Positions 4,087 to 32,667 are shown, counted from the stretch's first letter. The stretch is DNA of 64,000 nucleotides from Escherichia coli (GCF_001677475.2 NZ_CP015229.1), one strand, 5' to 3'. Notes: a model not told the origin generated them from the letters alone. Made by a program: numbers and translations.

Positions 4087-4662
4087 TCAGTCCATTAAAT
4101 GTGACATTTGCAAATAGTTAAGCAATAACACCGTCTTACCGTCACGTATCTCGCCGGTTTTGATCATCTCCAGCGCCTGGCTGAACGGCAGCTCGAGCAC
4201 TTCAATATCTTCATCTTCGACACCGCCACCGGCGTTAGCGCGCTGATTGTCACTGTATTCGGCGATAAAAAAGTGGATTAGCTCAGTCACACCGCCTGGC
4301 GACATATACAGTTCAAATAATTTGCGCACTTCGCCCACTTCATAGCCCGTCTCTTCAATCGCTTCTTTGCGAATGCACACTTCCGGTTCGTCGTTATCCA
4401 GCAGCCCGGCGCAGGTTTCAATCAGCAGCCCGGTTTCATTGCCATTAACCCAGGTAGCGACACGGAACTGGCGAATCAGAACCACCGTCTTTTTCTTCGC
4501 GTTGTACAGGAGGATCGTCGCACCATTACCGCGATCGTAAACTTCACGTTTATGGCGGATAACTTCGCCATCTTTGCGCGTGAGATCGTAAGTAATGTTG
4601 TGCAGGGTGAAATAGTTATCGGAGAGAATTTTGTCTTTAATGAGGGTGATTTGTTGCGTCAT
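4087..4662 (-). CDS. nudK: GDP-mannose pyrophosphatase (Nudix hydrolase)
   Basis: ORF 4087..4689 trimmed to ATG at 4662 (191 aa); Nudix box GX5EX7REUXEEXGU visible ([13 protein letters not shown]). Confidence 0.9.
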
Positions 4663-25965: not shown

Positions 25966-27405
25966 ATGGAAAATCTTGCTCTGACGACGTTATTGCTGCC
26001 TTTTATCGGCGCACTGGTCGTTTCGTTTTCGCCACAACGTCGGGCCGCCGAATGGGGGATTTTGTTCGCCGCGCTGACCACGCTGTGCATGTTGTCGCTG
26101 ATCTCCGCGTTTTATCAGGCCGATAAAGTTGCCGTCACGTTGACGTTGGTCAACGTGGGGGATGTGGCGTTGTTTGGCCTGGTCATTGATCGCGTGAGTA
26201 CGCTGATTCTGTTTGTGGTGGTGTTCCTCGGTTTGCTGGTCACGATCTACTCCACGGGTTATCTGACGGATAAAAATCGCGAACACCCGCATAACGGCAC
26301 GAATCGTTATTACGCATTTTTGCTGGTGTTTATCGGCGCGATGGCGGGACTGGTACTCTCCTCGACGCTGCTCGGTCAGTTGTTGTTTTTTGAAATTACG
26401 GGCGGCTGCTCCTGGGCGTTGATCAGTTATTACCAGAGCGATAAAGCGCAGCGTTCAGCACTAAAAGCGTTGCTTATCACTCATATCGGTTCGTTGGGGT
26501 TGTATCTTGCCGCCGCCACGCTGTTTTTGCAGACCGGAACGTTTGCGCTCAGCGCGATGAGCGAGTTACACGGCGACGCACGCTATCTGGTTTATGGTGG
26601 CATCCTGTTTGCCGCGTGGGGGAAATCGGCCCAGCTACCGATGCAAGCGTGGCTACCGGATGCAATGGAAGCGCCAACACCGATCAGCGCCTATCTCCAC
26701 GCCGCATCGATGGTGAAAGTGGGCGTTTACATTTTTGCCCGTGCCATTATCGACGGCGGCAATATCCCGCATGTGATTGGCGGCGTTGGCATGGTTATGG
26801 CACTGGTCACCATTCTTTATGGCTTCCTGATGTATTTGCCACAGCAGGATATGAAGCGGTTGCTGGCCTGGTCGACCATCACTCAACTTGGCTGGATGTT
26901 CTTCGGCTTGTCGCTCTCCATCTTCGGCTCGCGGCTGGCGCTGGAGGGTAGCATCGCCTACATCGTCAACCACGCATTCGCTAAAAGCCTGTTTTTCCTT
27001 GTAGCAGGTGCACTGAGTTACAGCTGCGGCACGCGCTTGTTGCCGCGTCTGCGTGGCGTATTGCACACCCTGCCATTGCCTGGCGTGGGTTTCTGCGTGG
27101 CAGCGCTGGCAATTACCGGCGTGCCGCCGTTCAACGGCTTCTTCAGTAAATTCCCGCTGTTTGCTGCCGGTTTTGCGTTGTCAGTGGAGTACTGGATCCT
27201 GCTGCCCGCCATGATTCTGCTGATGACTGAATCGGTCGCTAGTTTCGCCTGGTTTATTCGCTGGTTTGGTCGCGTCGTGCCTGGCAAACCTAGCGAGGCC
27301 GTCGCCGATGCCACACCGCTACCAGGGTCAATGCGCCTGGTGTTGATTGTACTGATTGTGATGTCGCTGATTTCCAGCGTAATCGCCGCGACCTGGTTGC
27401 AGTAA
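25966..27405 (+). CDS. hyfD: hydrogenase-4 membrane subunit (NuoM/N-like antiporter)
   Basis: 479-aa polytopic membrane ORF. Confidence 0.93.
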   Translation: MENLALTTLLLPFIGALVVSFSPQRRAAEWGILFAALTTLCMLSLISAFYQADKVAVTLTLVNVGDVALFGLVIDRVSTLILFVVVFLGLLVTIYSTGYLTDKNREHPHNGTNRYYAFLLVFIGAMAGLVLSSTLLGQLLFFEITGGCSWALISYYQSDKAQRSALKALLITHIGSLGLYLAAATLFLQTGTFALSAMSELHGDARYLVYGGILFAAWGKSAQLPMQAWLPDAMEAPTPISAYLHAASMVKVGVYIFARAIIDGGNIPHVIGGVGMVMALVTILYGFLMYLPQQDMKRLLAWSTITQLGWMFFGLSLSIFGSRLALEGSIAYIVNHAFAKSLFFLVAGALSYSCGTRLLPRLRGVLHTLPLPGVGFCVAALAITGVPPFNGFFSKFPLFAAGFALSVEYWILLPAMILLMTESVASFAWFIRWFGRVVPGKPSEAVADATPLPGSMRLVLIVLIVMSLISSVIAATWLQ

Positions 27406-27416
27406 GGAGATGATGA

Positions 27417-28067
27417 ATGACCGGTTCTATGATCGTAAATAATCTGGCGGGACTGATGATGCTGACATCACTGTTTGTGATTAGCGTCAAAAGCTATCGC
27501 CTGTCATGCGGATTTTACGCCTGCCAGTCACTGGTGCTGGTGTCTATTTTCGCCACCCTCTCGTGCCTGTTCGCCGCAGAGCAACTGCTGATCTGGTCCG
27601 CCAGCGCCTTTATCACCAAAGTGCTGCTGGTACCGTTAATCATGACTTACGCTGCACGAAATATTCCCCAGAACATCCCGGAAAAAGCGTTATTCGGTCC
27701 GGCAATGATGGCACTGCTCGCGGCGTTAATTGTCCTGCTTTGCGCATTTGTCGTTCAGCCCGTGAAGCTACCGATGGCTACCGGGCTGAAACCGGCGCTG
27801 GCGGTGGCGTTAGGTCATTTTCTGCTTGGCCTGCTGTGCATTGTCAGCCAGCGCAATATCCTGCGGCAAATTTTTGGTTACTGCCTGATGGAAAACGGCT
27901 CCCATCTGGTGCTGGCGCTTCTAGCCTGGCGTGCACCGGAACTGGTGGAAATTGGTATCGCTACCGACGCCATCTTCGCCGTCATTGTAATGGTGTTACT
28001 GGCAAGAAAAATATGGCGTACCCACGGCACGCTGGACGTGAACAACTTGACCGCGCTGAAGGGATAA
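27417..28067 (+). CDS. hyfE: hydrogenase-4 membrane subunit
   Basis: 216-aa hydrophobic ORF. Confidence 0.92.
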
Positions 28068-28071
28068 TGAG

Positions 28072-29652
28072 ATGAGTTATTCTGTGATGTTCGCTTTACT
28101 CCTGCTCACGCCGCTACTTTTTTCGCTGCTCTGTTTTGCCTGCCGGAAACGGGGACACTCTGCGACTCGCACGGTGACAGTACTACATGGCTTAGGGATC
28201 ACACTGCTGCTGATTCTGGCACTGTGGGTGGTCCAAACCGCCGCTGATGCGGGAGAAATATTCGCTGCGGGACTGTGGCTTCACATTGATGGCCTGGGCG
28301 GTTTGTTCCTCGCCATTCTTGGTGTGATTGGCTTTCTCACCGGTGTTTACTCGATTGGCTACATGCGTCATGAAGTGGCACACGGCGAGCTTTCACCCGT
28401 TACGCTGTGCGATTACTACGGTTTCTTCCATCTGTTTTTGTTCACCATGCTGCTGGTTGTTACCAGCAATAACCTGATTGTGATGTGGGCGGCAATCGAA
28501 GCCACCACCTTAAGCTCGGCGTTTCTGGTAGGCATTTACGGTCAGCGTTCATCGCTGGAAGCTGCATGGAAGTACATCATTATTTGTACTGTTGGTGTCG
28601 CTTTTGGTCTGTTCGGTACCGTGCTGGTATACGCCAACGCCGCCAGCGTTATGCCGCAGGCAGAAATGGCGATATTCTGGAGCGAGGTTCTTAAGCAATC
28701 GTCCTTGCTTGACCCAACATTAATGCTGTTGGCCTTTGTGTTTGTGCTAATTGGCTTTGGCACCAAAACCGGGCTTTTTCCCATGCACGCCTGGCTGCCG
28801 GATGCTCACAGTGAAGCGCCGAGTCCGGTCAGCGCCCTGCTCTCCGCCGTATTGCTGAACTGCGCGCTGTTGGTGCTTATTCGCTATTACATCATTATTT
28901 GCCAGGCCATCGGCAGCGATTTCCCCAACCGGTTGTTGCTCATCTTCGGCATGTTGTCGGTTGCCGTGGCGGCATTTTTCATTCTGGTACAGCGGGACAT
29001 TAAGCGTCTGCTGGCGTACTCCAGCGTGGAGAACATGGGACTGGTCGCGGTGGCGATAGGCATTGGCGGGCCGCTGGGAATTTTTGCCGCGCTGCTGCAC
29101 ACCTTAAACCACAGTCTGGCAAAAACGCTGTTGTTCTGCGGTTCCGGCAATGTACTGCTCAAGTACGGCACGCGCGATCTCAACGTCGTCTGTGGGATGC
29201 TCAAAATCATGCCATTTACCGCCGTGTTGTTTGGCGGCGGTGCGCTGGCGCTGGCCGGGATGCCGCCCTTCAACATTTTTCTTAGCGAATTTATGACCGT
29301 TACCGCCGGACTGGCGCGTAATCATCTGCTGCTTATCGTCCTGCTGTTATTGCTGTTAACGCTGGTGCTGGCGGGCCTGGTACGGATGGCTGCGCGGGTG
29401 TTAATGGCGAAACCGCCGCAGGCCGTTAACCGGGGTGAACTTGGCTGGTTGACCACCTCGCCAATGGTGATTCTGCTGGTCATGATGCTGGCGATGGGAA
29501 CGCATATTCCACAACCTGTCATCAGGATCCTGGCTGGCGCTTCCACTATAGTCCTCTCAGGGACGCACGACCTGCCTGCACAACGTAGCACCTGGCATGA
29601 TTTTTTGCCTTCAGGCACCGCATCTGTTTCGGAGAAACACAGTGAACGTTAA
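28072..29652 (+). CDS. hyfF: hydrogenase-4 membrane subunit (NuoN/M-like antiporter)
   Basis: 526-aa polytopic membrane ORF. Confidence 0.93.
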
Positions 29653-31357
29653 TTCATCGTCAAATCGTGGCGAAGCGATTCTCGCCGCCCTGAAAACGCA
29701 GTTCCCCGGCGCGGTGCTGGATGAAGAGCGACAAACGCCTGAACAGGTCACCATTACGGTGAAAATCAATCTGCTGCCTGACGTTGTGCATTATCTTTAT
29801 TATCAACATGATGGCTGGCTTCCAGTCCTGTTTGGCAACGACGAGCGGACACTTAACGGTCATTACGCAGTTTATTATGCCCTTTCTATGGAAGGGGCCG
29901 AAAAATGCTGGATCGTGGTGAAGGCACTGGTCGATGCCGACAGTCGGGAGTTTCCGTCAGTCACACCGCGCGTCCCTGCCGCGGTCTGGGGCGAGCGAGA
30001 AATTCGCGATATGTACGGGCTGATTCCGGTTGGCCTGCCGGATCAGCGTCGGCTGGTGTTGCCCGATGACTGGCCGGAAGATATGCATCCGCTGCGCAAA
30101 GACGCGATGGATTATCGACTGCGCCCTGAACCGACGACTGATACCGAAACGTATCCGTTTATCAACGAGGGCAACAGCGATGCGCGGGTGATCCCTGTCG
30201 GCCCGCTGCATATCACCTCCGATGAACCAGGTCACTTCCGCTTGTTTGTGGATGGCGAGCAAATTGTCGATGCTGATTACCGCCTGTTTTATGTCCATCG
30301 CGGCATGGAGAAACTGGCAGAAACGCGGATGGGCTACAACGAAGTGACCTTCTTGTCGGACCGCGTGTGTGGGATTTGCGGTTTTGCCCACAGTGTGGCC
30401 TATACCAACTCGGTTGAAAATGCACTGGGGATTGAGGTGCCGCAACGAGCGCATACTATTCGCTCGATTCTGCTGGAAGTCGAACGGCTGCATAGTCATT
30501 TGCTCAACCTTGGCCTCTCCTGCCATTTTGTTGGTTTTGATACCGGCTTTATGCAATTTTTCCGCGTGCGGGAAAAGTCGATGACGATGGCGGAATTGCT
30601 GACCGGGTCGCGTAAAACCTACGGTCTGAATCTGATTGGTGGTGTTCGCCGCGATATTCTCAAAGAGCAACGTCTGCAAACGCTGAAACTGGTGCACGAG
30701 ATGCGCGCCGACGTGTCGGAGCTGGTAGAGATGCTGCTTGCCACGCCGAATATGGAACAACGCACTCAGGGCATTGGCATTCTCGACCGACAAATCGCCC
30801 GTGATTATAGCCCCGTAGGGCCGCTGATCCGCGGCAGTGGCTTTGCCCGTGATTTGCGCTTTGATCACCCCTACGCCGACTACGGCAATATTCCAAAAAC
30901 GCTGTTTACCTTTACCGGCGGCGATGTCTTCTCCCGCGTGATGGTCCGTGTCAAAGAGACGTTTGATTCGCTGGCAATGCTGGAATTTGCCCTCGACAAC
31001 ATGCCAGATACCCCACTGCTGACCGAAGGCTTTAGCTATAAACCTCACGCATTCGCGCTGGGCTTTGTTGAAGCGCCACGTGGTGAAGACGTGCACTGGA
31101 GCATGCTCGGTGATAACCAAAAATTGTTCCGCTGGCGCTGTCGTGCCGCCACCTACGCCAACTGGCCAGTGCTACGTTACATGCTGCGCGGCAATACCGT
31201 TTCTGACGCACCGCTGATTATCGGTAGCCTTGATCCCTGCTACTCCTGTACCGACCGTGTGACGCTGGTTGATGTGCGCAAGCGCCAGTCAAAAACCGTG
31301 CCGTATAAAGAGATCGAACGCTACGGCATTGATCGTAACCGTTCGCCGCTGAAGTAA
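29642..31357 (+). CDS. hyfG: hydrogenase-4 [NiFe] large catalytic subunit
   Basis: ORF 29597..31357; preferred start GTG 29642 (GGAG RBS 7 nt upstream, overlaps hyfF end); NuoC/NuoD-like fusion with N-terminal CxxC and C-terminal DPCxxC Ni-binding motifs. Exact start uncertain. Confidence 0.9.
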
Positions 31358-31366
31358 GGACAGAAG

Positions 31367-31912
31367 ATGCTGAAGTTACTGAAAACTATTATGCGCGCCG
31401 GAACCGCGACGGTGAAATATCCCTTCGCGCCACTGGAAGTCAGCCCAGGCTTTCGCGGGAAACCGGACCTGATGCCCAGCCAATGTATTGCCTGCGGTGC
31501 CTGCGCCTGTGCTTGTCCGGCAAATGCGCTGACTATCCAGGCCGACGACCAGCAAAATACGCGCACCTGGCAGCTCTATCTGGGGCGTTGTATTTACTGC
31601 GGACGTTGTGAAGAAGTGTGCCCGACCAGAGCCATTCAGCTTACCAATAACTTTGAACTGACCGTCACCAATAAAGCCGATCTCTATACCCGCGCGACGT
31701 TCCATCTACAACGTTGCAGCCGTTGCGAACGCCCGTTTGCCCCGCAAAAAACCGTCGCACTGGCTGCAGAACTGTTGGCACAGCAACAAAATGCACCACA
31801 AAACCGCGAAATGTTACGGGCGCAAGCGAGCGTCTGCCCGGAATGCAAACAACGCGCGACGCTGATCAACGACGACACAGATGAACCGCTGGTGGCTAAG
31901 GAGCAGCTATGA
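31367..31912 (+). CDS. hyfH: hydrogenase-4 Fe-S subunit (NuoI-like)
   Basis: 181-aa ORF with two CxxCxxCxxxCP motifs. Confidence 0.93.
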
Positions 31913-32667
31913 GTCCAGTGCTTACACAACATGTCAGCCAGCCCATCACGCTGGACGAGCAAACGCAAAAGATGAAGCAGCATTTGTTACAGGATATACG
32001 TCGCTCGGCCTACGTTTATCGCGTCGATTGCGGCGGCTGCAACGCCTGCGAAATCGAAATTTTTGCCGCCATCACACCCGTATTCGACGCAGAACGTTTT
32101 GGCATTAAGGTTGTTTCATCACCGCGTCACGCCGATATTTTGTTATTTACTGGCGCAGTCACCCGGGCGATGCGTATGCCTGCACTTCGGGCATATGAGT
32201 CTGCCCCCGATCATAAAATCTGTGTTTCCTACGGCGCATGCGGTATCGGCGGCGGTATTTTCCACGATCTTTACAGCGTCTGGGGCGGCAGCGACACCAT
32301 TGTCCCCATTGATGTTTGGATCCCCGGCTGCCCGCCAACACCGGCCGCCACCATTCACGGTTTCGCCGTGGCGCTCGGTTTGCTGCAACAGAAGATTCAC
32401 GCGGAGGATTATCGCGATCCCACCGGGGTGACCATGCAACCGCTGTGGCCGCAGATCCCGCCATCACAGCGTATCGCCATTGAGCGAGAAGCGAGGCGGC
32501 TGGCGGGCTATCGTCAGGGGCGAGAAATTTGCGATCGGCTCCTGCGCCATTTAAGCGACGATCCTACAGGAAATCGGGTTAACACCTGGTTGCGCGAAGC
32601 CGACGATCCGCGTCTCAATAGTATCGTTCAGCAACTCTTTCGCGTTCTCCGGGGGTTACATGGCTGA
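31909..32667 (+). CDS. hyfI: hydrogenase-4 small subunit (NuoB-like)
   Basis: 252-aa ORF overlapping hyfH stop by 4 nt; NuoB-like cysteines. Confidence 0.93.

Follow-up and report, generated by a model that had tools for sequence, protein, structure and literature searches.

The start codon of hyfG at the hyfF/hyfG junction of Escherichia coli, and a 48-nt deletion allele of the gene

The gene for the catalytic subunit of hydrogenase 4, hyfG, is very probably translated from the GUG codon at positions 29642-29644, by way of the Shine-Dalgarno (SD) sequence GGAGA at 29631-29635, giving a product of 571 aa and leaving the in-frame ATG at 29597 unused. All positions refer to the window, i.e. the whole 64,000-nt stretch of Escherichia coli DNA that was analyzed, and the hyf genes lie on its plus strand. 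The start itself is already known, both in RefSeq and in the literature, and is as such an ordinary result.

The region 25966-32667 of the window constitutes the hyfD-E-F-G-H-I part of the E. coli hyf (hydrogenase 4 / formate hydrogenlyase 2, FHL-2) operon. In this, hyfF (28072-29652) encodes the 526-aa antiporter-like membrane subunit of hydrogenase 4, as identified from its ORF and from the Pfam domain Proton_antipo_M (E = 1.5e-55), and ends in the TAA at 29650-29652, while hyfG (29642-31357) encodes the catalytic (large) subunit, in which a NuoC-like and a NuoD-like [NiFe] domain are fused. The SD of hyfG is situated inside the hyfF coding region, its GGAG core (29631-29634) being separated from the GTG by a 7-nt spacer, AAACACA. 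Counted from the first base of the hyfG start, the hyfF stop comes 8 nt later, and the two genes, which are in different frames, overlap by 11 nt including the stop. Neighboring hyf junctions are tight as well, with overlaps of 4 nt (hyfH/hyfI) and 8 nt (hyfI/hyfJ). Every one of the junction coordinates given in an earlier note on this DNA, i.e. those of the ATG, the GGAG, the spacer, the GTG, the hyfF stop and the overlap, proved exact.

The start at ATG 29597-29599, within hyfF, is that of a mechanical longest-ORF track and is not the real one; as the earlier note had remarked, the ORF list has hyfG begin there. The ORF so obtained has 586 aa, because the list takes the first ATG, GTG or TTG past the preceding in-frame stop, the hyfG frame being open from 29552. 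The track thereby mis-starts hyfG by 15 codons, which matters only for cloning, tagging or residue numbering of HyfG from a naive ORF call. The same list contains a 98-aa, GTG-initiated ORF on the minus strand (29322-29618), which overlaps ATG 29597 and is antisense to hyfF at its 3' end. This was rejected as a gene, since it stems from the mechanical listing, lies opposite a gene for a conserved membrane protein and has no support.

Evidence for the start codon in E. coli

In the RefSeq/PGAP annotations of strain 7/2, of a K-12 derivative and of O157:H7, the hyfG start corresponds to 29642 and the hyfF end to 29652, and E. coli hyfG has been described as initiating with GUG (Finney et al. 2019), with the reservation that both the annotation and that description may rest on the same sequence reasoning as the present analysis. 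The RefSeq HyfG proteins WP_001102312.1 and WP_001102329.1 (571 aa) have the same start codon, the same 11-nt overlap and the same product as the window, whereas the K-12 protein (WP_001102321.1) has 555 aa instead of the 571 of the full-length allele in the window, its junction being no different. A literature search for start-site or N-terminal data on HyfG returned only the sequence-based statement of Finney et al. (2019); in laboratory E. coli, hyf is poorly expressed (PMC7654741; Trabulsiella preprint).

The strength of each SD was scored as the best duplex that the 20 nt upstream of a codon can form with the 3' end of 16S rRNA, and was compared to a background of 6000 random NTG triplets from the window. 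GTG 29642 scored -6.6 kcal/mol, a value reached by only 3.9% of the background triplets, and the remaining hyf genes scored between -5.1 and -9.2 kcal/mol. ATG 29597, on the other hand, had a best duplex of -1.5 kcal/mol, with 69% of the background triplets at least as good, in agreement with the earlier note, according to which this codon has no ribosome-binding site. Initiation at ATG 29597 would lengthen the protein to 586 aa, by 15 N-terminal residues encoded within hyfF, and the two genes would overlap by 56 nt. For this speaks the fact that ATG is the commonest start codon, in a frame which is moreover open at that point, but the codon has neither an SD nor the backing of RefSeq, and the homology and comparative data described below make its use highly improbable.

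When HycE from the solved FHL-1 complex (7z0s chain E) was aligned to the long ORF (E = 3e-292), HycE residue 4 was found at long-ORF residue 22, and the GTG product is consequently three residues longer than HycE, while the ATG product is 18 residues longer. In an alignment of 21 N-termini, conservation starts at the motif G..YLA.L...FP, about 10 residues past the GTG. Every aligned homologue has just a short, variable leader in front of this motif, and the 15-codon extension from ATG 29597 has no counterpart in, or homology to, any HyfG or HycE N-terminus. The homology boundary drawn by these HycE and HyfG orthologues, to which the earlier note had looked for a decision, fits GTG 29642 and not ATG 29597.

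The same alignment weighs on a start further downstream, e.g. at codon 25 (GTG 29714) or at one of the rare start codons ATT and CTG, by which the annotated N-terminus would be left untranslated. Suitable in-frame codons are indeed present (GTG at 29714, 29759 and 29786; ATT/CTG at 29678 and 29690), but they lack an SD, all scoring -4.0 kcal/mol or weaker. HyfG residues 10-24, furthermore, align with the conserved G..YLA.L...FP positions in all HyfG and HycE homologues and are thus under constraint at the protein level, and the NuoC-like domain of HycE starts already at residue 9 (PMC7050243). A downstream start is therefore hardly to be expected.

The content of the databases also agrees with GTG 29642. 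The exact 571-aa sequence occurs in NCBI and UniRef under the name 'hydrogenase 4 catalytic subunit HyfG', with 33 contigs, while a collection of about 15 billion predicted proteins does not contain the exact 586-aa version that would result from ATG 29597. At the position set by homology and annotation there is a GTG with an SD at a distance of 5-10 nt, as expected of a GUG-initiated gene.

A 701-nt probe across the junction (window positions 29300-30000) found a match in 4294 of the 5426 complete E. coli genomes, with identities of 95-99.7% and in every case under annotated hyfF and hyfG. Among the 4294 genomes carrying the junction, its 69-nt sequence is identical in 4208 and differs in 86. 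The other 1132 of the 5426 genomes gave no match to the junction region, which suggests that about one E. coli genome in five lacks the hyf operon.

The junction in other species

By scanning one genome per species, 80 loci encoding relatives of HyfG and HycE were obtained, a set that does not include Shigella, E. albertii or E. fergusonii, the nearest relatives of E. coli. The junction set comprises the 75 loci with hyfF directly upstream, including the window and three further E. coli loci, and leaving 71 non-Escherichia loci. Nine other loci were set apart: five are true hyc-type loci (L078 and L080-L083), two have no close hyfF match but a hyf-like SD-GTG arrangement (L062 and L068), and two are too short upstream for classification (L044 and L073). 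In the hyc-type loci, the start codon of the true hycE genes is an ATG.

Judged by SD score, the best-supported in-frame start is a GTG in 71 (effectively 72) of the 75 hyf-type junctions, these and the following species counts not being phylogenetically independent. Apart from an artefact in Yokenella, an ATG is best supported only in two Pasteurellaceae and in a Formivibrio metagenome-assembled genome (MAG). The Yokenella call (L019) was discarded, as the scoring had picked a downstream ATG in a locus that also has the conserved GTG, whose SD scores -6.4 kcal/mol. Exactly the arrangement of E. coli, i.e. GGAG, 7 nt and GTG, was found in 47 of the 71 non-Escherichia loci. In 42 of these 71 a stop codon interrupts the hyfG frame at a distance of under 45 nt before the GTG, 45 nt being the length of the E. 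coli extension, and 39 have, from the preceding stop up to the GTG, not a single in-frame start codon. The comparative data effectively refute a start at ATG 29597. Taken together, annotation, literature, the HycE homology boundary, conservation across species and database content side with the earlier note in its choice of GTG 29642 as the more plausible start.

Information content per position was calculated over the 58 distinct 48-nt junction contexts among 72 junctions (those of the 71 other species and the window). Only four elements stand out as strongly conserved, namely GGAGA at -11 to -7 (1.26-1.52 bits), AA at -3 and -2 (1.09-1.36 bits), the GTG itself (1.71-2.0 bits) and an A at +4 (1.66 bits), while positions -30 to -12 do not exceed 0.56 bits. 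The G at +1 is present in 55 of the 58 contexts. Since the SD-GTG arrangement recurs in essentially all hyf-type junctions that were examined, it goes beyond what chance would produce.

Where hyfF ends with respect to the hyfG start, by comparison, differs between species, the extremes being an overlap of 23 nt and a gap of 47 nt, while the SD-GTG spacing is fixed. Among the 75 junctions, 27 loci have a 1-nt gap, 17 a 4-nt overlap, eight a 2-nt gap and seven, including all four E. coli sequences, an 11-nt overlap, these being the commonest classes; rarer classes have overlaps of 8, 14 or 23 nt, or gaps of 17-47 nt. As the stop drifts and the spacing does not, the initiation site is the constrained element, with the hyfF tail floating around it.

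The C-terminal tail and stop of hyfF are labile across the set, switching between the two possible relative frames (loci L004-L079, at about 2430-2510 in each locus). In E. coli, four codons that follow directly upon the hyfG start in Citrobacter sp. Awk 4 (TAT TCA GAC AGC) are missing, the corresponding window positions being 29645-29650. This 12-nt in-frame difference, GTG AAY [TAT TCA GAC AGC] GTT AAT, separates E. coli from Citrobacter and Klebsiella indica (L004 and L005, positions 2489-2506), and as a result of it E. coli has an overlap of 11 nt instead of 23 and the shortest HyfG leader of the set.

Two loci carry taxonomic labels at odds with their enterobacterial-type hyfG. One is labelled Chryseobacterium sp. 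18061 (L024, CACSKA010000005.1), with 84% protein identity to E. coli HyfG, and the other is a MAG labelled Desulfovibrio desulfuricans (L073, QKDT01000362.1), with 74% identity. Both look like contamination, mislabelling or binning errors and not like true occurrences.

Probable coupling to hyfF and the use of GUG

The geometry of the junction is that of coupled bacterial gene pairs, with the SD in the last codons of hyfF, the start 8 nt before its stop and no promoter- or terminator-like site between the two genes, although most other species in this dataset belong to the 4-nt and 1-nt classes, an overlap of 11 nt being rarer. GTG 29642 is, from this geometry, probably a coupled start. A scan of 29000-30200 gave no promoter-like site, and at the junction no terminator-like one either, which fits a single polycistronic message; the only terminator-like match of the scan is at chance level and lies inside hyfF (29063-29077). 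Translation of hyfG from this message would then be due, in part at least, to ribosomes coming directly from hyfF, and these ribosomes, while finishing hyfF or after it, would either keep the SD and start codon accessible or re-initiate there.

It is also conceivable that GTG 29642 is used with independent initiation, i.e. by de novo binding of the 30S subunit at the SD, in which case the overlap would be a by-product of the drifting hyfF tail and the GUG would have no regulatory meaning. Several observations point in that direction: the SD is reasonably strong alone, the hyfF C-terminal tail varies in both length and sequence, and distant species have the same SD-GTG arrangement 17-47 nt past the hyfF stop, with no overlap at all. 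Nor does the junction RNA (29580-29700) have any structure beyond that of its shuffles that would need to be unwound, the minimum free energy of -28.7 kcal/mol being equal to the shuffle mean (z = 0.01), with no sign of a structured coupling element or a masked SD. The RNA fold and the distant species also speak against coupling as an obligatory mechanism. A scan of 28800-30400 against Rfam, on both strands and with E up to 1, gave no match. Against independence, 64 of the 75 junctions have the hyfG start at most 3 nt after the hyfF stop or overlapping it by up to 23 nt, which is a geometry typical of coupled genes. Against a GUG devoid of meaning, the GTG is kept in the 27 loci with a 1-nt gap, where its first base is free of any hyfF coding function, while true hycE has ATG; this suggests selection on the GUG itself. 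We regard independent initiation as unlikely, though by no means negligible, and retain the coupled start as the preferred reading.

GUG is a less efficient initiation codon than AUG in E. coli. A weak GUG, kept across the FHL-2 clade where hycE has AUG, would limit the output of the catalytic subunit. It is possible, and offered here only tentatively, that the GUG and the SD at its fixed 7-nt spacing are a selected feature of the whole FHL-2 clade (about 68 lineages of Enterobacterales and Shewanella), which would throttle HyfG synthesis and couple it to that of HyfF, so that HyfG does not outrun the assembly of the membrane arm or the supply of the [NiFe] cofactor. The idea of a dosage effect of GUG was raised for two species by Finney et al. 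(2019), as compared with the approximately 70 species in which the pattern is found here. The breadth of GUG across FHL-2 operons, set against the AUG of hycE, lends modest support to this published suggestion that the start codon limits the amount of enzyme.

HyfG and its 48-nt deletion allele

The domain order of HyfG is that of a NuoC-NuoD-type fusion, with PF00329 (E = 6.6e-24), PF00346 (E = 5.8e-50) and PF00374 (E = 2e-14) following one another. The first of these, the NuoC-like (Complex1_30kDa) N-terminal domain, is encoded at 29756-30106 and matches long-ORF residues 54-170, i.e. residues 39-155 as counted from the GTG; this domain, which takes up the first 155 residues or so, binds no cofactor and governs the assembly of the complex (Skorupa et al. 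2020, PMC7050243). Both CxxC motifs are present. The so-called N-terminal one, of the RxCGxC type (RVCGICG, within 30359-30391), aligns with the HycE motif and has its nickel-binding CGIC at 30368-30379, with the two cysteines encoded at 30368 and 30377, while DPCYSCTDR, near the C-terminus, aligns with both HycE and the membrane-bound hydrogenase (MBH). The earlier note had expected the position of the true start to bear on the N-terminal CxxC region, and on this point it was mistaken. The adjective is part of the name of the motif and does not denote closeness to the protein N-terminus, as the cysteines are residues 243 and 246 from the GTG, behind a NuoC-like domain of about 170 residues. 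With the motif so far from the N-terminus, the choice of start alters only the residue numbering and a short, unconserved leader.

The context of the gene is of the hyf type, with the antiporter-like hyfF and the FHL-2-specific hyfE upstream and hyfH and hyfI downstream, in the RefSeq order hyfD-E-F-G-H-I-J. The cleavage-site context in the translation is R*VTLV, the one that distinguishes HyfG from HycE with its R*MTVV (Finney et al. 2019). Domains, motifs and context together identify the predicted protein as the large subunit of hydrogenase 4 / FHL-2, a group 4a [NiFe]-hydrogenase. HycE of hydrogenase 3 / FHL-1 (7z0s chain E) has the same two-domain architecture and aligns over essentially its whole length, and with hyfG starting at the GTG the two N-termini come to lie within 3 residues of each other. 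The differences, besides the cleavage site, are in the genes: hycE follows hycD and begins with ATG, whereas hyfG follows the antiporter-like hyfF.

The K-12-derived hyfG is 1668 nt long (555 aa), whereas the window, strain 7/2 and O157:H7 all have a gene of 1716 nt (571 aa). The difference consists of an in-frame deletion of 48 nt, corresponding to 30797-30844 of the window and to 16 residues (386-401), with the deletion point at 4498/4499 of the K-12 locus (L002). In the window, the 10-bp direct repeat GCCCGTGATT is found on either side of the segment, which is the signature of slippage. The segment is kept in all 83 other loci, of both HyfG and HycE type and ranging from Escherichia to Shewanella. 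Seven of its residues, namely S390, V392, G393, P394, R397, S399 and G400, are invariant in 83 out of 83 loci, and all seven are lost in K-12 HyfG; the motif that they form, VGP..RGSG, also aligns with the large subunit of the Pyrococcus MBH (6cfw_L).

The frequency of the deletion was estimated from alignment spans in 60 genomes, taken in even steps down the ranking of the 4294 hyf-carrying E. coli. Thirty of these spanned the full 251 nt and 30 were shorter, 29 with a span of exactly 203 nt and the last with a partial match of 176 nt. K-12 strains and ETEC-2264 are among the shorter ones. About half of the hyf-carrying E. coli have the deletion allele, and both lengths of HyfG are also found among database proteins. 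A search with the 48-nt segment alone gave 350 matches, which is an undercount, since SNPs break the 28-nt word of megablast. Term searches for an internal deletion in HyfG gave nothing in Finney et al. (2019), Finney et al. (2020; PMC7654741) or the Trabulsiella preprint; the deletion may be described elsewhere, for instance in the 1997 paper which is said to contain the first description of the hyf operon.

Essentially all negative experiments on hydrogenase 4 are based on the K-12 allele, which is without the 16 residues that are retained by the window and by approximately half of the hyf-carrying E. coli. Among these experiments are 15 K-12 strains that were provided with strong promoters and HycE-type C-termini and showed no hydrogen production by hydrogenase 4 (Finney et al. 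2020, PMC7654741). The 48-nt deletion may bear on the inactivity of hydrogenase 4 in K-12, and the deletion allele is possibly of more importance than the start codon. E. coli FHL-2 has been called a 'long-standing mystery' (Trabulsiella preprint), and should the deletion inactivate HyfG, it would bear on that mystery, i.e. on why hydrogenase 4 appears inactive in this species.
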